A DNA stretch of 64,000 bases from Escherichia coli. Its GTDB lineage: Bacteria > Pseudomonadota > Gammaproteobacteria > Enterobacterales > Enterobacteriaceae. Shown one piece after another: positions 33,240 through 46,550 of the stretch. Position numbers and translations under genes: made by a program. The notes under the pieces were generated by a model. The model did no database searches. It was not told where the DNA came from and was given only the letters and a program-made list of their open reading frames with translations. The stretch lies in NCBI RefSeq assembly GCF_013122565.1, contig NZ_CP053258.1; one strand, written 5' to 3'. Within the stretch, counting starts at the first letter, position 1, and the number at the start of each line of letters is the position of its first letter.

Positions 33240-34133
<894 letters not shown>

Positions 34134-34186
34134 TTACCTCATCAATCGCTTGTTGTTATATGTTGTGTTGTGCACATCTATCCATT

Positions 34187-34210
34187 TAGACGTCCAGATG
34201 TAAAGATGAA
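34187..34210. promoter_or_regulatory. Tandem MetJ boxes in the metF promoter
   Basis: agacgtcc-agatgtaa-agatgaag: three consecutive 8-bp repeats matching the met-box consensus AGACGTCT, upstream of metF. Confidence 0.55.
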
Positions 34211-34542
34211 GGAAAAGCCGAAGGGCGTCAACCGAAAAATGACCACTGATGGTGAGGAAATATCAGGGAAGTTGAAATTTTTTCATCTGAAGAAAAAAAC
34301 AGGGATACCAATGTTCAGTATGAGGTGAATATTGGGAAAATGCTGACGTTATTAATTTTATATTTATTTAAATGATGATTCATTCTGATTTATTTACTTA
34401 AAAAATGAATTATATTTTCAAATAAAACAAAAAGATACTTTAAGCCTCTCCGGCCTCCTCGCTTTTAATTTTGAACCACTTCAAACAAATAATAAATTCC
34501 TAAGAATTAAGTTGCAGACAAATTATACATCCCTCACGATAA

Positions 34543-34580
34543 GTAGAACGTTCTAGTAGAACGTTCTACTTATATAAATA
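34543..34580 (+). promoter_or_regulatory. Tandem perfect 12-bp palindromes (TAGAACGTTCTA x2) overlapping a -10-like TATAAAT; putative LacI-type operator and promoter for the EIICB operon
   Basis: gtagaacgttctag-tagaacgttctac at about 34543..34569, 55 to 80 bp upstream of the EIICB start, followed by tatataaat. The palindrome has the central CG and AACGTT core typical of LacI/GalR-family operators. Confidence 0.55.
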
Positions 34581-34623
34581 ATCGTTCTTGCGCAGTCATC
34601 TGCGCTATTCGGGGGAAATCAGC

Positions 34624-36123
34624 ATGGGTCTGATATCGAGTGTCGTAAAATCACTTTCTAAACTGTCGATGATTGGTCGCGCGCTGATGCTGCCAATTTC
34701 GCTTCTGCCTGCCGCCGGGTTGTTGCTGGCGTTCGGCGATAAATTCCACATGCCGTTGATGATGAATGCCGGCGGTATCATTTTTGATAACTTGCCGATG
34801 CTTTTTGCTATCGGTTCTGCCGTGGGACTGGCTTCAGAATCGGGTATTGCGGCGCTATCCGCAGCTGTATCCGTCTTTGTCACTAATATCACCATCGGTA
34901 CTGTCCTTGGCATCACACCAGAGATGGCCGGGCAAGGCGGTAAATATGCGATGGTGGTGGGGATCCCAACGCTGCAAATGGGCGTCTTCGGCGGCCTGAT
35001 ATGCGGGGTTCTGGCGGCGTGGTGTTACAACCGTTTTCATACCATGCAATTACCAGAATTCCTTGGCTTTTTCTCCGGCAAACGCTTCGTGGCTATCGCG
35101 ACGGCTTTTCTTTCCTTCATCCTTGGCTTGTTACTGCCCTATGTCTGGCAACATATTCAGTCGGGAATCGATGCCCTATCAGTTATCGTCAATGGTGATA
35201 ACCAGGCGGCATCGACCTTTATTTTTGGTGTGACAGAACGTGCGCTCATTCCGCTTGGCCTGCACCACATCTGGTATCCATCGTTCTGGTACTCTTTTGG
35301 TGATTACACCACCCAGGCAGGCCAAATGATCCACGGTGACCAAACAATTTGGTTCAAAATGCTGGAAGAAGGTGTGAAATCGTTCAGTAGCGACAGCTAC
35401 CATAACGCGGGTAAGTTTTTACAGGGCGAGTTCCCGCTCATGCTGTTCGCGCTGCCTGCGGCGTGTCTGGCGATGTACCATGAAGCACACACCAAAAATA
35501 AGAAAATTGCCGCCGGTATTCTGTTCTCTGCCGCATTAACCTGTTTCCTGACAGGTATTACAGAACCCGTTGAATTTACCTTTATTTTCGTGGCACCGGT
35601 ACTGTACGTATTCAACGCGATAATGGCTGGCCTCTCCTATATGGCGATGTATCTGCTCCATGCCCATATTGCAAAATCCTTCTCGGCAGGGCTTATCGAT
35701 TATATTTCGTTTGGCATCCTGCCATCATTTAACGGCTACGAAACCAACTTCCTGAGTGCCATTATTGTTGGCGTACCGATGGCGATTATCTATTACTTCA
35801 CTTTCCGCTTTGTTATTCGCCGTTTTGATGTGAAAACACCGGGTCGAGCCGAAAGCACCGTATCCGCTAACGATAAAACCGATGATGAACTGGCTACGGA
35901 AATTATCAGTCTGCTGGGCGGCCAACAAAATATCTCTTCCGTCGCATCCTGCATAACACGCCTGCGTCTGGAAGTGGCAGATAAGGATGTAGTTGATAAA
36001 GATGGACTGAACAATGTCGGTGCTCGTGGTGTGGTTTTTGTCGGCGATAACGGCATTCAGGTGATTTTTGGCGCACGTGCACAATTTATCGCGCAAACCA
36101 TGTCGACGATGATTGGCAAATAG
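34624..36123 (+). CDS. PTS glucose-family EIICB component, sugar specificity unknown; accessory
   Basis: About 499 aa from MGLISSVVKSLSKLSMIGRALMLPISLLPAAGLLLAFGD, preceded by a GGGGGA Shine-Dalgarno. A PtsG/MalX-like EIIC domain is followed by a C-terminal EIIB domain with the phosphorylatable Cys motif SCITRLRLEV. The ORF-track start at 34588 is probably too far upstream. No EIIA gene is adjacent. Confidence 0.85.
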   Translation: MGLISSVVKSLSKLSMIGRALMLPISLLPAAGLLLAFGDKFHMPLMMNAGGIIFDNLPMLFAIGSAVGLASESGIAALSAAVSVFVTNITIGTVLGITPEMAGQGGKYAMVVGIPTLQMGVFGGLICGVLAAWCYNRFHTMQLPEFLGFFSGKRFVAIATAFLSFILGLLLPYVWQHIQSGIDALSVIVNGDNQAASTFIFGVTERALIPLGLHHIWYPSFWYSFGDYTTQAGQMIHGDQTIWFKMLEEGVKSFSSDSYHNAGKFLQGEFPLMLFALPAACLAMYHEAHTKNKKIAAGILFSAALTCFLTGITEPVEFTFIFVAPVLYVFNAIMAGLSYMAMYLLHAHIAKSFSAGLIDYISFGILPSFNGYETNFLSAIIVGVPMAIIYYFTFRFVIRRFDVKTPGRAESTVSANDKTDDELATEIISLLGGQQNISSVASCITRLRLEVADKDVVDKDGLNNVGARGVVFVGDNGIQVIFGARAQFIAQTMSTMIGK

Positions 36124-36196
36124 TCATAAGATTACGCTTTGTTGGAGGTTCTGGTCCCTGACTGGAACCTTCGTACTTATTGTTCAGGGAGTGAAG

Positions 36197-37213
36197 TTGA
36201 AGAAAGTCAGCATAATTGATGTTGCCAAAAGCGCAGGAGTCTCGGTCTCTACTGTGTCGCTGGTCCTGCGCCAGAAAGGCAAAATTTCCGAGGCAACCAT
36301 CGAGAAAGTTCATGCTGCCATTACTGAGCTTGGCTACGTGCATAATGTTGCCGCCGCCAATTTACGCTCCAACACTTCAAATCTTATCGGTCTGATTTTA
36401 CGTGATTTTAGCGATAGCTTTTCCATCAAAGTGATGGCAAGTATTGTTCAGGAACTGGAAGCACAAGGATATATGGTTTTCCTCGGGCAACCACAGAACG
36501 AGCATGAACATCTTGAACGCTGTTTGCTTTCCTTCAAGCAACAAGGTGTTGCCGGAGTGATTTATCTGGCTTCCGATGCGCAGCGTGAAACCTTACCCGC
36601 GCTGATTCGCCAGTGCCCTCTTCCTCTTGTCGTCGCCTCACAATCCCCCATCAAAGATGAATGCAATCTGGTATTGCGCGACAACCAGCAGGCGGCAAGC
36701 CTTGCCACGCGTTATTTAATTGAGCGTGGACATCGTTACATTGCCTACCTCGGCGGCAGAGAAAGCGATCTTATCCGCCAACAGCGACTGGTGGGTTTTC
36801 GCCAGACCCTGGCAAAATTCGGTATTGCCAGTCGTGACGAGTTCACGCCAGCCTGTGACGATGATACATACGCCGCCAGCATGGCCACGCGCCAGTTGCT
36901 GGAGAATAACAATGCCATCACCGCCCTACTCTGCCATTCGCCCGAGGCCATGATTGGCGGTATCAACGGCATACATCAGGTGGGGCGCACCGTCGGGAGA
37001 GACATCTTTCTGACCCAGCAGGTGGCGCTAATTGGTTTTGAAGATATGCTGCACATCAATCTGACCTCGCCCGTTTTCACCTATGTCTCTTCCGCCAGTG
37101 AAGAAACCGGACGCCAGGCTGCTAATCTAATAATCCGCAAGTTAAAAGACCCGGAGCTGCAAATTCAAAGAATTGCGCTTTCCGGGCAACTGGTAGTGCG
37201 GGAATCGGCGTAA
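36197..37213 (+). CDS. LacI-family transcriptional regulator; accessory
   Basis: The N-terminal HTH (KKVSIIDVAKSAGVSVSTVSLVLRQKGKIS) is the LacI/GalR signature, followed by a periplasmic-binding-protein-like sugar-binding domain. The likely start is TTG or GTG at 36191..36197 after AGGGAG, giving about 338 aa; the ORF-track start at 36113 overlaps the EIICB gene. Confidence 0.8.
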   Translation: MKKVSIIDVAKSAGVSVSTVSLVLRQKGKISEATIEKVHAAITELGYVHNVAAANLRSNTSNLIGLILRDFSDSFSIKVMASIVQELEAQGYMVFLGQPQNEHEHLERCLLSFKQQGVAGVIYLASDAQRETLPALIRQCPLPLVVASQSPIKDECNLVLRDNQQAASLATRYLIERGHRYIAYLGGRESDLIRQQRLVGFRQTLAKFGIASRDEFTPACDDDTYAASMATRQLLENNNAITALLCHSPEAMIGGINGIHQVGRTVGRDIFLTQQVALIGFEDMLHINLTSPVFTYVSSASEETGRQAANLIIRKLKDPELQIQRIALSGQLVVRESA

Positions 37214-37336
37214 TTATTTCTGCCAGTCTCCGTCTTTAGCCGGCGGTCATCGCCACAACTGCACTGATGGATATGGTATTCTTTCGAGTATCTTTGCGGG
37301 CACTAACGCCAGGAGTATCGCCATGAGAATGGCGCG

Positions 37337-38818
37337 ATGAACACAGGGAATTTCGAGTCGATACAAATCATACTCGACGCGCAAGAGTGGCGTAGCCTGC
37401 CGCTGCATCTGCGTCTGTATCACGCTTTTCGCCAATTGGTGATTTCCGGCGCGTTGTCTGATGGCGCAAAGCTGCCGTCCGCTCGCGCACTGGCCCAGCA
37501 ACTTGGTCTTTCCAGAGATACCGTCGAAAATGCCTATTCCCAGCTTCAGCGCGACGGTTTTATGACCCGCAGGCAGGGAGCCGGGAGTTTCGCCAGCCGC
37601 CAGGGGATCCCGCAAATTCAGGGGCAGCACGCTCAGCCCCCCTCGCCCGGACAAGCACCGGCATTAACCGCCCGCTGGCAGCCGATTGCCGATCGCGCCG
37701 TCTCTTTCGATGCCCGCCAGATGCAGACCTTTACGCTTGGCCTGCCGGAAACGCGAAACTTCCCGCTAAACATTTGGCAGAACTTTTCCCGCCAGATCCA
37801 ACGTGAGCAGGCGCATACGCTGATGTTAAATAGCGATCCGCAGGGCGAGCCGGAGCTGCGCCAGCAAATTGCGCATTACCTTAATTTTGAACGCGGCGCG
37901 AAGGTAGATGCAGAGCAGATTGTGATTGTCAGCGGCGCACGGCAGGCGTTCTGGCTGTGCGGGCAACTGCTGGCAGAGGCCGGGCAATCAGTGGCGATGG
38001 AAAATCCAGGCTATCCCGGCGCGCGTCAGGCGTTTTCTGCCGCACAGCTTAATCTTCTTCCCGTTGAAGTGGATGACGCCGGGATCCGGGTGGATAAACT
38101 GCCGCCCGCACCGCTGGTTTACGTCACGCCGTCGCACCAGTTTCCTTCTGGTCATTTGCTCACGCTGGCGCGCCGTCACGCCCTGATTGCCTGGGCACAG
38201 GCGCACAATGCGTGGATTATTGAAGACGACTACGACAGCGAATTTCACTACACCAGCGCGCCCGTCGCCTGTCTGCAAGGGTTAGACTGCGAGCAACGCA
38301 CCCTGTATGTCGGCACTTTCAGCAAAACGCTCTATCCTGGTTTGCGCATTGGTTATCTGGTGGTGCCTGCCTCGCTGGCTGCGCACTTTGCCGCCGCACG
38401 TAATTTGCTTGATGGCGCAACGCCTGCGTTATCCCAACTGACGCTGGCGCGATTTATCGAGTCCGGTCATTTTGCCGCCCATATTCGCACCATGCGCAAT
38501 ATGTACGCGGTGCGACAGGCGAGCCTTGCAGAGGCTATTCATCAGCACTTAAGTGAATGGGTCACGCCAGTGGTGACATCCGGTGGATTACAAATGCCCT
38601 GCTGGCTGCATGAAGATGTTGATGAGCAACAGACGCTGAACGCGGCGCGCCGCGCCGGGTTAAATATCGCCGGGATGCGCCAGTTCTGGCTGACGCACCC
38701 CGCGCCCGCGGGCTGGCTGCTGGGATTCGCCGCCTTTACCCCCTACGAAATTGAGCAGGGAGTCAAGCGTCTGCGGGCTGCATTATGCGCTGAAAACGTG
38801 CGCCCAGCCGGGTCATAA
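37337..38818 (+). CDS. MocR/GabR-family transcriptional regulator (GntR HTH fused to a PLP aminotransferase-like domain); accessory
   Basis: 493 aa. The N-terminal winged HTH (LYHAFRQLVISGALSDGAKLPSARALAQQLGLSRDTVENAYSQLQRDGF) is followed by a long aminotransferase class I/II-like domain. Confidence 0.8.
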   Translation: MNTGNFESIQIILDAQEWRSLPLHLRLYHAFRQLVISGALSDGAKLPSARALAQQLGLSRDTVENAYSQLQRDGFMTRRQGAGSFASRQGIPQIQGQHAQPPSPGQAPALTARWQPIADRAVSFDARQMQTFTLGLPETRNFPLNIWQNFSRQIQREQAHTLMLNSDPQGEPELRQQIAHYLNFERGAKVDAEQIVIVSGARQAFWLCGQLLAEAGQSVAMENPGYPGARQAFSAAQLNLLPVEVDDAGIRVDKLPPAPLVYVTPSHQFPSGHLLTLARRHALIAWAQAHNAWIIEDDYDSEFHYTSAPVACLQGLDCEQRTLYVGTFSKTLYPGLRIGYLVVPASLAAHFAAARNLLDGATPALSQLTLARFIESGHFAAHIRTMRNMYAVRQASLAEAIHQHLSEWVTPVVTSGGLQMPCWLHEDVDEQQTLNAARRAGLNIAGMRQFWLTHPAPAGWLLGFAAFTPYEIEQGVKRLRAALCAENVRPAGS

Positions 38819-39869
38819 TCTCATACGGGATGGTGTCGCAGGCAGCCGCAACCTCTTCCAGCGTCTGGCCTGTGCCAATAAACTCCACCTTATCGCCCGC
38901 CGTCGGCGTGACGGCGCTGGCATCGACCATAAAGCTGTCCATACACACCCGCCCCAACACCGGTAACCGCACCCCGCGCCAGCATACGCCCGCCGGAGGA
39001 CGCATATTTCGCGGAACGCCATCCGCGTAACCCGCGGATATCGTGGCGATACGCAGCGGACGCGTGGCGGTAACCGTGCTGCCGTAGCCAACTGGCGTTC
39101 CGGCCGGAACATCCTGCACGCGCAGTATGGTCAGCGTCAGCGTAAAGACCGGTTTTAACGGCCTGGAAAACCACGGCTGGGTGACGCCAAACAGCGCAAT
39201 CCCCGGACGGCAGAGATCTTCCCGCCAGCCCGAGTGCAAAAACATCCCGCAGGAGTTCGCCAGCGAAAATCGGCTGCTGGGGAAAACCGTTTTTGCCTGC
39301 TGAAGTCGCGCGTGTTGCGCCATATTTAACGCATGATCCGGCCTGTCGGCGTTCGCCAGATGGCTGATGATATAATCCGGCGCAGGCCAGTTACGCTCAC
39401 GAAAAATCGCCGCCAGACGCATCAGTTGTTGCGACATCACGCCCAGCCGCGACATCCCGGAATCGAGCTGAATCATCACCGCACGCCGCTGCTGGCGCGT
39501 TTCCAGTAACGTAAGCCACGCCATCACCTGGTCTACGGAATTGAGCAATGGCGTGATCTGCTGCGCGTAACAAAATGCCATCGCCTCCGGCATAACCCCA
39601 TTAAGCACCACCACCCGCGCATCAGCGGGCAAGCATTTACGCAGCGCCACACCTTCAGAAAGCTGCGCGACAAAAAAGATCCGGCAGTTCGCCGCATACA
39701 GGGCGGGAGCAATCGCCTCCGCCCCCAGACCATAGGCATTCGCCTTCAACACCGCGCCACATTGCGCACGGGCAGCATGGCGGGCCAGGGTGCGATAATT
39801 TTCGACAATGGCGGCGAGATTGACGCACATAACGCCGCACGCCGCCTGAATTTCAGCAAGAGTTATCAT
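38763..39869 (-). CDS. Alanine racemase-family PLP enzyme (fold type III); accessory
   Basis: 368 aa. Contains the PLP-lysine motif [11 protein letters not shown] near the N-terminus and an Alr-like C-terminal beta domain. Overlaps the MocR 3' end by about 56 bp (convergent) and the downstream SHMT-like gene by 4 bp. Confidence 0.8.
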
Positions 39870-41104
39870 TGATAAGGCAACGGATAGCGGTTGGTTAGTT
39901 GTATTACTTTTTGCTCAATATCGGCGCAAATGTCTGCAATATCTGACGCGTTAATGGCCAGAATGATTTCACTTATCCAGTCAGCAATAAGCGCAAAGTC
40001 ATCCGCCTGCATCCCACGCGTGGTGCAGGCCGCGCTGCCAATACGAACGCCGGAGGTAATCGACGGCGGCTGCGGATCGCCCGGCAGGGTGTTTTTATTA
40101 ACCGTGATCCCCGCCAGTTCGAGAAAATACTCTACCTGTGCGCCGGTTAACCCCTGCGGGCGCAGGTCGATAATCCCCAGATGGCAATCGGTGCCGCCCG
40201 TTAACAGCGTCAGACCGCGCTGCGCCAGTTGCTGGCACATCGCCTGCGCATTGTCGATGACCTGCCCGGCATAACGTTTAAATTCCGGTTGTAATGCCTC
40301 GCCAAGCGCCACCGCTTTCGCCGCGATAACGTGCATCAACGGCCCGCCCTGCAAACCGGGAAAGATGGCGCTGTCGATTTTTTTCGCAAGCCGGGCGTCG
40401 TTGGTGAGGATCATGCCGCCGCGCGGCCCGCGCAACGTTTTATGCGTGGTGGTGGTGACCACATCAGCATACGCCAGCGGCGAAGGGAAACAGCCGCCCG
40501 CCACCAGCCCGGCAAAGTGCGCCATATCCACCAGCAAAATGGCGCCCACGGCATCGGCAATGCGGCGAAAACGGGCAAAATCATAGCGGCGTGGATAAGC
40601 CGATCCTCCGGCAATAATCAACCGTGGGCGCTCACGCAGCGCGATCATCTCGACTTCATCCATATCAATCAGGCCACTATGGGCATCGACGCCATAGTGA
40701 AAAGCGTTAAACCATTTGCCAGATTGATTGACCGGCGAACCGTGCGTGAGATGCCCGCCGCATTGCAGGCTCATGCCAAGAATTTTGTCGCCGGGTTTCA
40801 GCAACGCCAGATAGACCGCCTGATTCGCCTGGCTGCCGGAGTGAGGCTGCACATTGACGTAACGTGCGCCAAAGAGTTGCTGGGCGCGGGTTATCGCCAG
40901 CATCTCAACCTCATCAATAAACTTACAGCCGCCGTAGTAGCGATGCTGGTAATAACCTTCGGCGTATTTATTGGTTAACACCGACCCCTGCGCCGCGAGA
41001 ACAGCGGGGCTTACGAAATTCTCCGAGGCAATCAGTTCCAGCGACTACTGCTGGCGCTGTTGCTCCTGGTTAATCAATGCAAAAAGTGGATCGTTATTTA
41101 TCAT
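39866..41104 (-). pseudogene. Serine hydroxymethyltransferase (GlyA)-like PLP enzyme with an in-frame amber stop at codon 20
   Basis: Reverse-strand translation from ATG at about 41104 gives [50 protein letters not shown]..., then continues through the SHMT signatures HSGSQAN and [16 protein letters not shown]. The TAG is at about 41045..41047 where GlyA has Glu. The ORF-track entry is only the 371-aa reinitiation product from GTG at 40981. Confidence 0.75.
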
Positions 41105-41337
41105 GCGCTTCCCCCGAAAATTCATCATGCGATGATTTTCGCAGGGAAAACGTCGCCCGCACCCTGCCACTTTTTAGAATGAGCGCAGACCACCTATGTC
41201 GTTTTACTTAAAAGAAGAGGGAAGAAGGCTCCAGGCATCTCCATATGCGATTCTGGTTGGTAATACATCATATTCCAGCTGCTCTTATCTGCCTACGTTA
41301 TTGCATAGGCAGAATAAGGCAGCCTCAATACGTACTT

Positions 41338-42891
41338 TTACTTGATATATTTCACGCGCATACCGTTGATCTGTTCATCCGTGATGGTGTTACCCGCTTT
41401 GAAGTAATCAACCACGGCGTGATAAACGTAATAACCGCCCGTTGTGTTACGCGCTTTCCCTTCGGTAAAGGCGGTAAAACCATCTCCACCATCAGCAAGG
41501 AAACTCTGGGTGGCAATAGAATAAACTGTCGCATCTTCAATGGGTTTGCCATTCAGAGTCAGTGTGATTACCCGCTGACCAACCGGCTTGCTGCTGTCGT
41601 ACTTCATTTCCAGGCCTTTCGATACCTGTAAAACGCCATTACTTAAACTTGCGCCGTGTTCCATCAAACTGCGTAATTGTTTCCCTGTGAGATCCATCGT
41701 CACCAGTTCGTTGGGGAACGGGAAGGTACTGATGACGCCGCCCATCGTAATCGCCCCTGCGGGGATCTCATTGCGAATACCGCCAGAGTTGGTTAAGGCT
41801 ATTTGGGTGTTTTTACCCGCCGCTACCAGTAAAGCGTCAGCCGCCAGGTTCCCGAGGGAAGCCGATTCACCATAGGCACGTTTTAATTCAACCGGCGATT
41901 GCGCCACCGTTTGTTGCACCACTTCATCAAGCTTTTTATTCCAGCCGTCGATCACCTGTTTTGTTTGCGGATCGGGCTTCCACTCGTCGGCGTAAATGGT
42001 TTTCAGCTCGAAGTTTTTCACCGTAAAATCATGCGGCTTCTCTTTGTAGTCGAGGACCAGTTTGCCCACATCAATCCCGCCGCTGTCAGTGGAGAGGATG
42101 AGCGTATTGCCGACTTTAATCGGTTCCGGCGTACCCACATGTGCATGTCCGGTGATCAAAATATCCAGCCCTTTCACCTGACTTGCCGTCTGAATATCTT
42201 TATCCAGTGCGCGACGCACATCGGTCCCTCCCATACTGGACTGGCGGGCCGGAACACCTTCATGGATCAGGGCGACGGTCAAATCAACCTTGCCTTTAAG
42301 TTCATCGATATAACGTTGTAGCCATTTAATTTCATCGCGCGCTTCAATACCCACGCGCGTGGCAGCAGATACCGTATCGTTGAAAGCAAATACTCCGTGC
42401 AAACCTATAACGCCTATTTTCACGCCGTCTTTTTCGATGATGGTATATGGCTTATCCCAGAATGATTTACTGCTGTTCTGATAAAAAACATTGCCCTGCA
42501 CAATAGGGAATTTTGCCTGACTCAACTGTAATAATGTGTTGTCCCAGCCGTGGTCAAATTCATGGTTGCCTATCGTGACGGCATCAAACGGCATAGTATT
42601 CATAATATCGATAATAGCCTTACCTTTGGTCAGGCTGCTGATATATGGCCCGGTAAAATAATCACCCGCATCAAAAAACCATGTCGCTTTATTTTTTGCT
42701 TTTTCTTGCTTAACCAGCGTAGTGATATTTGCCCAGCCGCCAATATCCCGTTTACCGTCAGCGATCCACGGCACTTTATAAGGCTCGACATGCGCATGGA
42801 GGTCGTTGGTATAAATGATGGTGACATCTTTGGCGCAAGCCCAGAACGGCAATGTTAATGCGATACCCGCAGCAAGTATTTTAATTTTCAT
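41338..42891 (-). CDS. Secreted metallophosphoesterase / 5'-nucleotidase-family protein (UshA/CpdB-like); accessory
   Basis: 517 aa with an N-terminal signal peptide ([20 protein letters not shown]) and calcineurin-like phosphoesterase motifs ([36 protein letters not shown]), followed by a C-terminal 5'-nucleotidase-type domain. Confidence 0.8.
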
Positions 42892-43023
42892 AAATAGTCC
42901 CTTTCAGTGATTTAAAGGATTGCTACATTACGTTCTGAAAGAGTTATTTATGTGAGAGTAATCACATCCGCAGGGGATAGTTGCCGGACAAAATCAACGA
43001 CCTTGTGAAATCGTTGGTGATAT

Positions 43024-44154
43024 ATGTCAACTCTGTTTACGATTAATGCCTGCAAGTCGTTTGGTTGCCGTAATTTAGGGCAACCAACATCGACAGATTA
43101 CAGCTGGCCAGACTATCGACTGGGTTATCCGGCACTGCACTGTCGGGCATGTGGAAGTTACCCGCCGTTGTTTGACGAACAGCAATTTCGTGACTGGTTG
43201 TCAGTTCACTTATCTACTTTTGCAACTGAGAAAGGTCATTTCTGCCCGGTATGTTATGGCACAAAGACGATTTGTTATGGCCACAATCCACAGGGGTCGC
43301 AACGCATTCAATGTCGTAACTGCAAAAAAGTCTGGACACCTAAACAATATCAGAAAGAAATAACGCCTCCTGAAATAATCGAAACGGTTGCTCTTCTGGT
43401 GCCATTTCAGGGAGCCAGCAATGGGCAGAAACTGTATGTTTTAATCAGTTTTGATGCTCTTCGCGGTAATATTCTTCATCTTTCTACTAATTACACGCAG
43501 CATCAGGCTGGAGAAAGTCTGCATTATCGATACAGAGGAAATGCAGAACCAGAGTTACACGAGAGTAATATTGTACAACGCGTTGATATGCGCGAAGCAC
43601 AATTTCTACGCCGCAGTCAGTTTGATGAAATTCAGTATGGCAGCGCAGCGCTCAAACGCAATGCTAAAGGTATTATTCTGCGTCCGGTTATCACTGCACA
43701 CGGGCATTTCAGAGTACTGAATATTTTATTCCCTACAGTAAAAACACATGTAATTTCACACGAGTGTTTTTTAAGAGGTGCCATTATTACGGCATGGGCT
43801 GATCTGTTTCGCCAACAGCAAGGTGAAATTTGGTTTATTGAAGAGGAAATAGCTGACTATACCGATAATATGCCCTGGAGTTTTCAGGGAACAACATATC
43901 ACGGCTGGTGGAAAAATCAGTGGCAACTTTGGGGTCAGGGCAAAAATCGTAAAATGGTATGTGCATTAACAGGCGGAAATAACAGCAAAGCTGAAATGCT
44001 CTCTTTCGCAACCAGCAGACATTTTATCGACTGGCTACATAAACAAGCAGTATTTACTCACAGCACCCCGCTTTCCGCAGGGCGCGTTACGCAAATACTG
44101 CTTTCTCTGGCTCAGGATTACAACAACTGCGCCAGCCGGTTGATATCCGACTGA
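43024..44154 (+). CDS. Cys-rich protein with two N-terminal zinc-ribbon motifs (IS1 InsA-like finger), rest unknown; accessory
   Basis: 376 aa. Motifs C-x5-C...HC-x2-C and CPVC...GSQRIQCRNCKKVW; the latter resembles the IS1 InsA zinc-finger region (from memory). The last 12 codons overlap the metL 3' end on the opposite strand. Confidence 0.6.
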   Translation: MSTLFTINACKSFGCRNLGQPTSTDYSWPDYRLGYPALHCRACGSYPPLFDEQQFRDWLSVHLSTFATEKGHFCPVCYGTKTICYGHNPQGSQRIQCRNCKKVWTPKQYQKEITPPEIIETVALLVPFQGASNGQKLYVLISFDALRGNILHLSTNYTQHQAGESLHYRYRGNAEPELHESNIVQRVDMREAQFLRRSQFDEIQYGSAALKRNAKGIILRPVITAHGHFRVLNILFPTVKTHVISHECFLRGAIITAWADLFRQQQGEIWFIEEEIADYTDNMPWSFQGTTYHGWWKNQWQLWGQGKNRKMVCALTGGNNSKAEMLSFATSRHFIDWLHKQAVFTHSTPLSAGRVTQILLSLAQDYNNCASRLISD

Positions 44155-46550
44155 ATCGCCCCGGCGGTGACATCGCGCCCTGCGCCTGGTCCGCGGATCA
44201 CCAGAGGGTTATCGCGATACCAGCGGCTTTCGATGGCAAAGACGTTATCGCACGGCAGCAGTGATGCCAGCGGATGATCTTCACGCACCGCTTCCACGCC
44301 CACACGCGCTTTGCCGTTGGCATCGAAACGCGCCACGTAGCGCAGCACCAGCCCCATTTCGCGGGCCGCTTCCAGCCGTTGCAACATCTGCTCGTTGAGT
44401 TCATCGCCGTTTTCAAAGAAATGGTCGATGCTACCGCCTTCGCAATGGGCAGGCACCAGCGATTCCACGCGCACCTGATCCGGTTCGATGTCGTAACCCG
44501 CTTCACGCGCCAGAATCACCAGCTTGCGCATTACGTCTTTGCCGGAGAGGTCGTCACGCGGATCAGGCTCGGTTAAGCCCTGCTGCCACGCCTGATCCAC
44601 CAGCTCGGTAAACGGCACGCTACCGTCGAATTGCAGGAACAGCCAGGAGAGCGTGCCGGAGAAGATCCCACTGATCGACAAAATAGTATCGCCGCTGTCG
44701 ATCAGATCGCGCACGGTGTGGTTGATCGGCAAGCCCGCGCCGACGGTAGCGTTGTACAGCCAGTGACGCCCGGTTTTTTCGAAGGCGTCGTGGATCTGGC
44801 GATATTTATTGCTGTCGCTGGCTCCTGCCAGTTTGTTGGCGCTAATGACGTGGAAACCGTGGCTGGCGAAATCGAGATACTGGTCAGCAAGCTGCTGGCT
44901 GGCGGTAACGTCCAGCACCACTAAATCATCATACGGATGGGCGCGCATCCACAGGAACAGCGACTCTTCATCCTGCTCAACCGCTTCATCGTTGAAGAAG
45001 GCTAACGCGCGGCTGGCGTCCAGCCCGTCATAACTCAACAGGCTGCGGCGGCTGTCCACCACGCCTGCCAGCACAAATTCAAAGCCGGTACGTGCCGAAA
45101 GCGTGCTCTGCTCACGGGCGAACAGTTCCAGCCAGCGGGAACCGATATTGCCCTTGCCGAACAATACCAGGCCGATGCGTTTTTCCGCGCGGAAGACGGA
45201 CTGATGCAGCCCCTGAATCAGGCTTTCGGTCGGGCCGGTGCGCAGAACTGCCACCAGGCTGATGCCGTCATCGGACTGCCAGGTAAACTCGACCGGCTGG
45301 CCTTTCAGTTGCTGCCAGAAGCGGTGGCAATGCAGCGGGTTACGGGTGACACCCGCCCCGACCATCGCCACCAGCGCCAACCCCTGACGCAGGCGCAGCT
45401 CGCCAGGTAATCCCGCTTCGTCTAGGATTTTCAGCGCACTGTCGGCCACTTCTGAGGTGTAGCAAAATTGCAGCAACTGGCGATCGTTATGCACGCCAAC
45501 CGCCAGTGGGCGCACCTGCGCGCGTTTCAGGATCTGGTCGATCTCTTTATGCGCCAGTTTGAAATCCTGGCTGGCGGGCACCTGAAACTCAATCAAGCAG
45601 ACATCGTCGTGGCTGGTGACAATACGCGCACCAGTACCGGAGGCCAGCACGCGTTCAATGCGCGTGGAACCTTGATCCGGCGTGTAGCTACAGCGCAGTT
45701 GCAGGTCAATTTCGCTGCCTGATACCGGCTGTAAAGTACGGGCGTGGAGAACCGGAGCCGCCAGACGCGCCAGTTCGCTGGCTTCATCCAGACGCAGCAA
45801 CGGCAACAGGCAGGCATCTTTCACTTTACGCGGGTCGGCACTGTATACCCCGGCGACGTCGCTCCAGATGGTTACACGAGAAACACCCGCCAGCGCACCG
45901 ATTTGTGTCGCGGAGTAGTCGGAACCGTTACGCCCCAGCAGCACCGTTTCACCGGCGTTGTTACGGCTGATAAACCCGGTCACCACCAGACGTTTACCCG
46001 GATGTTGTACCAGTAGCTGTTGCAGCAACGGGTAAGAAAGCCCTTCATCAACCTGCGGCTGCGCAGCGCGTTCAGCGCGTAAAAACTCGCGGGCATCAAG
46101 CCAGGCCGCTGGCAGCCCTTGTTGATTAAGTACCGCAGACATCAGGCGCGCCGACCACACTTCACCATGGCCCACCACTTCCGCATACACCGCATCGTTA
46201 ATACCGCTGTCGAGCAGCGCCGCCAGGCGCTCAAGATCGCTGACAAAAGCGCTAATGAGGCTATCGGCTTCTTCAGCGGGTAGCAGACCGCTAATCAGAT
46301 CGCACTGATAGCGACGCAGCGTTTGTTGAACCTGATGCGCAGAGAGACGATCGGTCTGGCTTAGTTTCAACCAGTTAATCAACTGGTTAGTGGTGCTACC
46401 AGCGGCGGAAACCACCATCATATCGTCAGGCTGAGAGTACTCCGCCATAATGCCCGCGACACGCAAATAACACTTCACATCAGCCAGACTACTGCCACCA
46501 AATTTATGCAGTTGACGACCTTTCGCCCCTGCCTGCGCAATCACACTCAT
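44118..46550 (-). CDS. metL: Bifunctional aspartokinase II / homoserine dehydrogenase II
   Basis: 810-aa ORF MSVIAQAGAKGRQLHKFGGSSLADVKCYLRVAGIMAEYSQ... ending ...INRLAQLL. Confidence 0.96.
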   Translation of the reverse strand: MSVIAQAGAKGRQLHKFGGSSLADVKCYLRVAGIMAEYSQPDDMMVVSAAGSTTNQLINWLKLSQTDRLSAHQVQQTLRRYQCDLISGLLPAEEADSLISAFVSDLERLAALLDSGINDAVYAEVVGHGEVWSARLMSAVLNQQGLPAAWLDAREFLRAERAAQPQVDEGLSYPLLQQLLVQHPGKRLVVTGFISRNNAGETVLLGRNGSDYSATQIGALAGVSRVTIWSDVAGVYSADPRKVKDACLLPLLRLDEASELARLAAPVLHARTLQPVSGSEIDLQLRCSYTPDQGSTRIERVLASGTGARIVTSHDDVCLIEFQVPASQDFKLAHKEIDQILKRAQVRPLAVGVHNDRQLLQFCYTSEVADSALKILDEAGLPGELRLRQGLALVAMVGAGVTRNPLHCHRFWQQLKGQPVEFTWQSDDGISLVAVLRTGPTESLIQGLHQSVFRAEKRIGLVLFGKGNIGSRWLELFAREQSTLSARTGFEFVLAGVVDSRRSLLSYDGLDASRALAFFNDEAVEQDEESLFLWMRAHPYDDLVVLDVTASQQLADQYLDFASHGFHVISANKLAGASDSNKYRQIHDAFEKTGRHWLYNATVGAGLPINHTVRDLIDSGDTILSISGIFSGTLSWLFLQFDGSVPFTELVDQAWQQGLTEPDPRDDLSGKDVMRKLVILAREAGYDIEPDQVRVESLVPAHCEGGSIDHFFENGDELNEQMLQRLEAAREMGLVLRYVARFDANGKARVGVEAVREDHPLASLLPCDNVFAIESRWYRDNPLVIRGPGAGRDVTAGAIQSDINRLAQLL

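Follow-up and report, generated by a model that had tools for sequence, protein, structure and literature searches.

We analysed a stretch of 64,000 nucleotides of Escherichia coli DNA (contig NZ_CP053258.1 of assembly GCF_013122565.1), which we refer to as the window, and describe a discrete cassette of three genes, about 4.1 kb in length, that lies in it between metF and metL. The cassette consists of a regulator gene of the MocR/GabR subfamily, a gene for a paralogue of alanine racemase (Alr) and a gene for a paralogue of serine hydroxymethyltransferase (SHMT). The window is chromosomal, with flanks that match E. coli genomes at 98-99% identity. The GC content of the cassette is 58.4%, against 52.4% for the window. 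The genes and their boundaries are as follows.

Positions 37337-38818, plus strand: MocR/GabR-subfamily regulator of the proteobacterial "PdxR" group (QJU26047.1), 493 amino acids, intact, with an N-terminal GntR winged helix-turn-helix and a fold-type-I aminotransferase-like pyridoxal 5'-phosphate (PLP) domain.
Positions 38763-39869, minus strand: alanine racemase paralogue ("alanine racemase 3", alr3), 368 amino acids, intact, alphaproteobacterial type.
Positions 39866-41104, minus strand: SHMT paralogue (glyA2-like), a pseudogene in the window.
Positions 39866-39869, minus strand: ATGA overlap of the SHMT stop and the alr start, 4 bp, which couples SHMT to alr.
Positions 38763-38818: convergent 3' overlap of the MocR and alr genes, 56 bp.
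Positions 37215-41323: insertion as delimited by comparison with E. coli UTME-7, in which this site has the phosphotransferase system (PTS), MalI and 5'-nucleotidase genes but lacks the three genes.

An initial annotation of this DNA described a MocR-type regulator converging on a racemase-family gene that is translationally coupled to an SHMT-like gene, the whole forming a PLP-centred module. The open reading frame (ORF) list and the sequence agree with that layout exactly, both the 4-bp ATGA overlap and the 56-bp 3' overlap are present, and the former supports translational coupling of SHMT and alr as an operon. The grouping of the three genes into one module is likewise upheld by a layout that is kept in Salmonella and in a third lineage. 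No terminator was detected between the 3' ends of the MocR and alr genes; scans for sigma-70 promoters and terminators returned no more matches than shuffled sequences did.

Protein searches located carriers in E. coli, Escherichia fergusonii, Salmonella enterica and the third lineage (L011), with each protein forming a tight group, and the gene architecture is identical in all four. The module occurs in 3 of 5426 complete E. coli genomes, at 95% identity and likewise between metF and metL. Among the E. fergusonii carriers is ATCC 35469, whose racemase bears the name "Alanine racemase 3", and those in Salmonella span many serovars, among them Typhi CT18, Enteritidis and Dublin. The Salmonella module again occupies the metL/metF site and has an intact SHMT of 412 amino acids, a 4-bp SHMT/alr overlap and a 56-bp convergent overlap; in the third lineage the corresponding overlaps are 4 bp and 83 bp, and in an E. 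fergusonii-like allele (L002) the SHMT/alr overlap is a single nucleotide, TAATG. The recurrence of the overlaps in both of these other lineages shows that the layout is a conserved one rather than a product of chance. Outside this group amino acid identity falls to about 64% for SHMT (Alpha- and Betaproteobacteria), about 50% for MocR (Janthinobacterium, Pseudomonas, Achromobacter) and at most 49% for Alr (Alphaproteobacteria). We found no description of the module in the literature under "alanine racemase 3", under the combination of MocR, racemase and SHMT, or under the metF/metL context.

The racemase has the features expected of an alanine racemase. It scores 237 bits with TIGR00492 (cut-off 168), both PF01168 and PF00842 are present, and the sequence in the window is identical to QJU26048.1/WP_171460023.1. 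Scores with more specialised models fall below their curated cut-offs (DadX, 163 vs 600 bits; VanT-G, 186 vs 460; VanT-CELN, 101 vs 900). The catalytic Lys42 (in AVLKANAYG), Tyr262 (VGYG) and Tyr349 (IPYE) are conserved, and K42, Y262, R141, R221, M310, D311 and Y349 are invariant in all lineages; we take these to represent the catalytic lysine and tyrosine, the arginines that contact the substrate carboxylate, the Met-Asp pair and the C-terminal tyrosine. Tyr349 is equivalent to the residue that in Alr restricts how large the substrate side chain can be, and that VanT has exchanged for another. A glutamine occupies the position where many Alr proteins have a carbamylated lysine. Comparison with broad-spectrum racemase (Bsr) was negative, since the N-terminus lacks signal-peptide features on inspection and Bsr structures score 64-75 bits. 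The best solved structure is that of Bartonella Alr (3kw3, 287 bits), with E. coli Alr (2rjg) at 129 bits. These data argue that the protein is a bona fide alanine racemase paralogue. The idea, raised with the initial annotation, that it might be a plain duplicate of Alr or DadX is false, as its nearest relatives are alphaproteobacterial and at most 49% identical. None of the Alr relatives at 48-49% identity has an SHMT or MocR neighbour.

Family assignment (PF00464) is equally clear for the SHMT paralogue, which scores 556 bits with NF000586 (cut-off 335). Bacterial SHMT structures score up to 527 bits and E. coli GlyA (1dfo) 472 bits, and identities of 62-65% link the intact orthologue of Salmonella with alpha- and betaproteobacterial SHMTs. 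In alignments all of the canonical residues are present: the PLP lysine in TTHK and the equivalents of Y55, E57, Y64, Y65, H126, R363 and N347. Few paralogue-specific changes fall at highly conserved positions; the two to note are P52Y, at E. coli P60 in the YPGxRYY loop, and A115C, directly before the GGH that stacks on PLP. These positions are 96-98% conserved among the 98 nearest SHMT relatives. By sequence, the intact protein is a bona fide serine hydroxymethyltransferase of the tetrahydrofolate (THF) type.

The regulator scores 435 bits with the NCBIfam PdxR model NF052282 (cut-off 320), MocR-type models cover residues 19-482, and its orthologues carry PF00392 and PF00155. It contains a TFSK motif, and GTFSKTLYPGLR in the window protein aligns with GTFAKTLYPGLR in the Bordetella orthologue; by analogy with GabR we take the lysine of this motif to be the PLP lysine. 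The closest relatives outside the group, at about 50% identity, adjoin genes for BenE-family transporters. The Bordetella MocR that adjoins benE-glyA is 47% identical to that of the window, and the recognition helix RDTVENAY is near-identical in the two.

Two features upstream of the SHMT gene bear on how the operon may be controlled.

Positions 41166-41193, minus strand: predicted MocR operator, a direct repeat GTGGTCTG-N15-GTGGC that ends 61 nt upstream of the ATG at 41104 (61-88 nt).
Positions 41107-41151, minus strand: inverted repeat or leader hairpin, which would pair the Shine-Dalgarno sequence GGGGGAA (41109-41115) with an upstream UUUUCCC.

An alignment of the sequence ahead of SHMT from every module lineage revealed a conserved block of about 90 bp that begins with GGTGGTCTGCG-N13-AAAAAGTGGC. 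Homology across lineages begins at the MocR start codon (37336/7) and stops at 41194, roughly 90 bp before the SHMT start, and the predicted operator coincides with that outer edge. The general pattern GTGGTCTG-N15-KTGGC has a single match in the window even with one mismatch allowed, where 0.10 would be expected by chance. In exact form it occurs once in each module locus and in 0 of 89 unrelated loci, a test that is partly circular, since the module loci counted are among those that supplied the motif. The pattern also occurs, in the same 23-bp register, upstream of Bordetella benE-glyA and Janthinobacterium benE, and a CTGGC variant (C for K) with the same spacing lies next to the Pseudomonas orthologue. 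We infer that the direct repeat is the operator of this regulator group. Since this predicted operator, shared with orthologous MocR loci, sits upstream of SHMT, the MocR protein is very probably the regulator of the operon.

A weak extended -10 element, TGCGAAAAT, lies at 41135-41143. Relative to the transcription start placed from this weak element, the promoter-proximal operator box would be about 40 bp upstream, a position that would fit activation. The leader hairpin has a predicted free energy of -23.4 kcal/mol (z = -2.05), and all three lineages retain the inverted repeat, in which two pairs show changes on both strands of the stem; no more than three lineages are independent. In the model it would occlude the SHMT Shine-Dalgarno sequence, and it is suggestive only of translational control or of a third regulator box. 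No Rfam family, riboswitches included, scored above threshold between 36900 and 41500. The only hit, a sub-threshold match to the mir-1788 precursor (41267-41334, minus strand; 24 bits vs a gathering score of 57, E = 0.055), falls in the spacer that separates the 5'-nucleotidase gene from the cassette and is almost certainly due to chance.

In the window the operon is crippled by a nonsense mutation near the start of SHMT.

Positions 41045-41047, minus strand: amber codon, CAG to TAG, at SHMT codon 20 (Q20).

Codon 20 is CAG in other E. coli carriers and CAC in Salmonella and the third lineage. The uninterrupted SHMT ORF begins only at the GTG at 40981 and spans 371 codons. An alternative in-frame start is available in the ATGATG at 41128-41123, which lies 21-24 nt upstream of the ATG at 41104 and inside the inverted repeat; the PGAP start is the second ATG of that pair (41125), which gives a form of 419 amino acids. 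The SHMT is dead in this strain and the operon is decaying. The amber stop, 1.2 kb before alr, probably weakens the coupled expression of alr as well. Other E. coli alleles are damaged in different ways: strains 2013C-4282 and WL297 share another SHMT nonsense codon, at position 281, and RMDEC465 has an intact SHMT and a nonsense codon at Alr Tyr349. Inactivation has thus arisen independently three times in E. coli, and MocR is undamaged in each of these alleles; in E. fergusonii and in some E. coli entries both enzymes are intact. The suggestion that the SHMT-like gene might be a dead pseudogene in all carriers therefore holds for the window and some E. coli and fails for Salmonella, E. fergusonii and the third lineage.

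Across lineages the picture is one of maintenance. The ratio of non-synonymous to synonymous substitution rates (dN/dS) is 0.07-0.09 for SHMT, 0.18-0.24 for Alr and 0.08-0.13 for MocR, and all three genes are therefore maintained by purifying selection across lineages. The cassette was acquired horizontally. Between E. coli and Salmonella its dS is 0.44-0.52, about half of that of the flanking metF and metL (0.9-1.4), an indication that transfer followed the separation of the species. The module of the third lineage (L011, 1-8400) abuts genes of the type found in SPI-7 and integrative and conjugative elements (ParA, DnaB, DUF2857 and a STY4528-family replication protein). These genes share 92.5% identity with an island of E. 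coli MS 16-3 and might be a vehicle for the cassette. No plasmid in PLSDB has the module, the best SHMT match there being about 63% identical. A scan of 100,044 species-representative genomes with the Alr3 alignment gave just Firmicute-type alr genes (at most 39% identity, by way of the chance peptide VCMDSFM); that scan also missed the E. fergusonii carrier, so it is no evidence of absence. A metagenome contig (L015) in which Alr3 accompanied an apparently different SHMT was rejected as a chimeric assembly artefact with 2.7x coverage: 250 N-terminal amino acids that are Firmicute-like, beside a Firmicute-like rpiB, are fused to the C-terminus of the paralogue at a conserved motif.

We consider it reasonably probable that the cassette is an isozyme operon, glyA2-alr3, controlled by a regulator of the PdxR group, crippled in this strain, and that it represents a variant of the PdxR-benE/glyA loci in which the partner gene is alr. 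Its wiring and the identities of its enzymes, as predicted from sequence, are well supported by comparison. Most likely MocR would bind the direct repeat 61-88 nt upstream of the SHMT start. It would respond to PLP or to an adduct of PLP with a ligand, and by analogy with PdxR and GabR it would probably act as an activator. The product of such a circuit would be a regulated extra capacity for SHMT and alanine racemase rather than a new pathway.

Several observations weigh against this interpretation. The rhizopine-MocR model scores almost as well as the PdxR model (427 vs 435 bits, the former below its own cut-off of 650), which makes the PdxR label a weak one, and no pdx gene is present in the module or its flanks. 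No operator site was found upstream of the MocR gene, where only a stretch resembling a ribosome-binding site is conserved; the promoter region is not conserved and so differs in each genomic context. The link between regulator and site is a prediction from sequence that includes the partly circular count given above. The substitutions P52Y and A115C lie next to the SHMT active site and may affect its function, and the rationale for placing SHMT and Alr in a PLP regulon is unexplained. Lastly, the three nonsense alleles show that the function of the cassette is dispensable in E. coli.

The alternative that fares best, though we rate it as rather unlikely, is that the cassette is a back-up that serves under stress or confers resistance, holding spare copies of the two PLP enzymes most vulnerable to 2-aminoacrylate, halo-alanines, D-cycloserine or vitamin B6 starvation, which would be switched on when PLP enzymes are damaged. 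GlyA and Alr/DadX are documented targets of 2-aminoacrylate in Salmonella (PMC12172467; references in PMC5320631), and a regulator of a PLP-sensing type, canonical enzymes and the lack of a transporter are all consistent with the idea. It is nonetheless purely inferential, nothing in the sequences indicates resistance, and E. coli carriers have repeatedly lost the genes. A bolder form, to which we would give no more credence, holds that the regulator induces the SHMT and racemase isozymes as "life support" under B6 scarcity, or when 2-aminoacrylate or cycloserine-like antimetabolites poison the PLP enzymes of the cell, and that P52Y, A115C and the glutamine in place of carbamyl-lysine might give tighter retention of PLP or resistance to damage. 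If true, this would mean that one-carbon supply and D-alanine for the cell wall are protected in Salmonella, including Typhi, and in E. fergusonii.

The initial annotation had instead proposed a dedicated route for D-amino acids or beta-hydroxy amino acids, induced by MocR, such as D-serine to L-serine to glycine and a one-carbon unit, or a cleavage resembling that of threonine aldolase. Two PLP enzymes are indeed tightly and conservedly coupled, MocR regulators often control amino acid catabolism (PMC5320631), and the unusual SHMT substitutions lie near the active site. Against it, the racemase keeps the Tyr349 equivalent and falls far short of the VanT cut-off (186 vs 460 bits), and the SHMT is canonical at all catalytic positions. 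No transporter, dehydratase, aldolase or other catabolic gene accompanies the module in any of its three genomic contexts, and the orthologous regulators sit with benE and glyA and not with D-amino-acid genes. Such a route is unsupported by these data, and we regard it as unlikely.

It is also conceivable that the amber codon is harmless and the operon fully functional, with translation restarting at the GTG at 40981 or reading through the stop. The 371-codon ORF has an AGGGG 3 nt upstream of its GTG, and both Alr and MocR are intact, yet a protein restarted there would be missing 41 residues at its N-terminus, the conserved ELIASEN segment among them, and the unrelated nonsense codons in other E. 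coli alleles (SHMT codon 281, Alr codon 349) indicate decay; we judge this very unlikely. Most improbable of all is that the SHMT is of the methylserine type (EC 2.1.2.7-like), converting alpha-methyl-L-serine to D-alanine for the racemase to turn into L-alanine: this would give a mechanistic reason to couple an SHMT with an alanine-specific racemase and has a precedent in an mSHMT paired with a D-amino-acid enzyme (PMC10848231), but the mSHMT of TRIS degradation, of which one sequence only, from plasmid CP131128.1, was compared, is 50% identical and reads NKTVEG, RFHGG, TTTK and QGSAHL where the paralogue has NKYAEG, RYYGG, TTHK and QGGPLMH, and the module has neither THF-recycling genes (folD, purU) nor a transporter.

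The interval from metF (33240-34130) to metL (44118-46550) is a mosaic island. Its cargo in the window comprises a PTS EIICB gene, a gene for a MalI-like repressor, the three-gene module, a periplasmic 5'-nucleotidase gene and a cysteine-rich ORF, and UTME-7 carries the same island minus the module. The interval (34131-44117) is a recombination hotspot with mosaic cargo; at this position other strains instead have a different hypothetical gene, extra 5'-nucleotidases and a Tsx-like channel. The PTS EIICB and MalI-like pair (34588-37213) was found in 8 of 5426 complete E. coli genomes, and none of the 5426 combines it with the MocR cassette as the window does. The 121 bp from the MalI-like stop to the MocR start (37215-37335) have no match in complete E. 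coli genomes and are not shared with the DNA that precedes MocR in other carriers. One further gene of the island should be listed.

Positions 43024-44154, plus strand: cysteine-rich ORF, 376 amino acids, with several CxxC pairs and a GC content of 44%, elsewhere annotated as "cytoplasmic protein".

This ORF has no NCBIfam match, and its 3' end overlaps that of metL by 37 bp. The metF gene of the window (33240-34130) differs from that of E. coli 2013C-4282 (L001, 5703-6593) by a dS of 0.24 with zero amino acid changes. This is unusually deep within one species and suggests that the flanking DNA was imported in one or the other strain.

If the isozyme-operon interpretation is right, the predicted proteobacterial PdxR regulon, which so far includes BenE, GlyA, PdxK and a YggS-like protein, would extend to an enzyme of cell-wall synthesis, with a precise operator prediction to go with it. 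The cassette is intact in Salmonella serovars, among them Typhi, Enteritidis and Dublin, and in E. fergusonii, where a regulated second SHMT and third alanine racemase could affect susceptibility to D-cycloserine and antifolates, B6 physiology and studies of 2-aminoacrylate stress. In the E. coli window, what counts in practice is that this operon is in decay.

Among known systems the closest counterpart is in Bordetella bronchiseptica. Suvorova and Rodionov (2016) predicted a "PdxR (Proteobacteria)" MocR regulog that contains BenE, GlyA, PdxK and COG325, and its B. bronchiseptica members are exactly BenE and GlyA (PMC5320631). PdxR (Proteobacteria) regulons (loci L097 and L099, and the supplement of that paper) repeatedly pair GlyA with COG325, a YggS-like family; we saw no alanine racemase among the members that the supplement gives for MocR regulons. 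The B. bronchiseptica SHMT is a close outside relative of the paralogue (64% identity) and sits in a benE-glyA pair with a 4-bp overlap and a convergent MocR gene. The two loci share an orthologous regulator (47-52% identity, with the same recognition helix), its convergent orientation, a GlyA target and the same direct repeat. They differ in the partner gene, which here is a full-length alr downstream of glyA and there a BenE transporter gene upstream of it. Unlike the wider regulog, the cassette includes no pdxK or COG325, and its host range is Escherichia and Salmonella.

The characterised PdxR regulators of Corynebacterium glutamicum, Bacillus clausii, Listeria monocytogenes and Streptococcus pneumoniae share the MocR architecture with the cassette regulator, which passes the PdxR model. 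Their operators are typically direct repeats spaced by about two helical turns, and the predicted site is similar. Characterised PdxR genes are, however, divergent from pdxST and autoregulated, whereas the gene described here is convergent, has no pdx gene nearby and has no site at its own promoter.

In the pathway for TRIS degradation an mSHMT gene is paired with one for a D-serine dehydratase (PMC10848231). The cassette resembles that cluster in placing an SHMT-family gene beside a gene for a D-amino-acid enzyme, and departs from it in that folD, purU and a transporter are present there, the active-site signatures differ and identity is 50%. The cassette enzymes have the same folds, catalytic residues and predicted reactions as E. 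coli GlyA, Alr and DadX, and yet are not recent duplicates of them, as the structure scores indicate (472 vs 527 bits for SHMT and 129 vs 287 for the racemase). The YggS-like proteins of COG325 presumably have a fold-type-III "alanine racemase N-terminal" domain. The association of GlyA with a full alanine racemase in the cassette parallels that of GlyA with COG325, a partner of the same fold, and this parallel may carry meaning.

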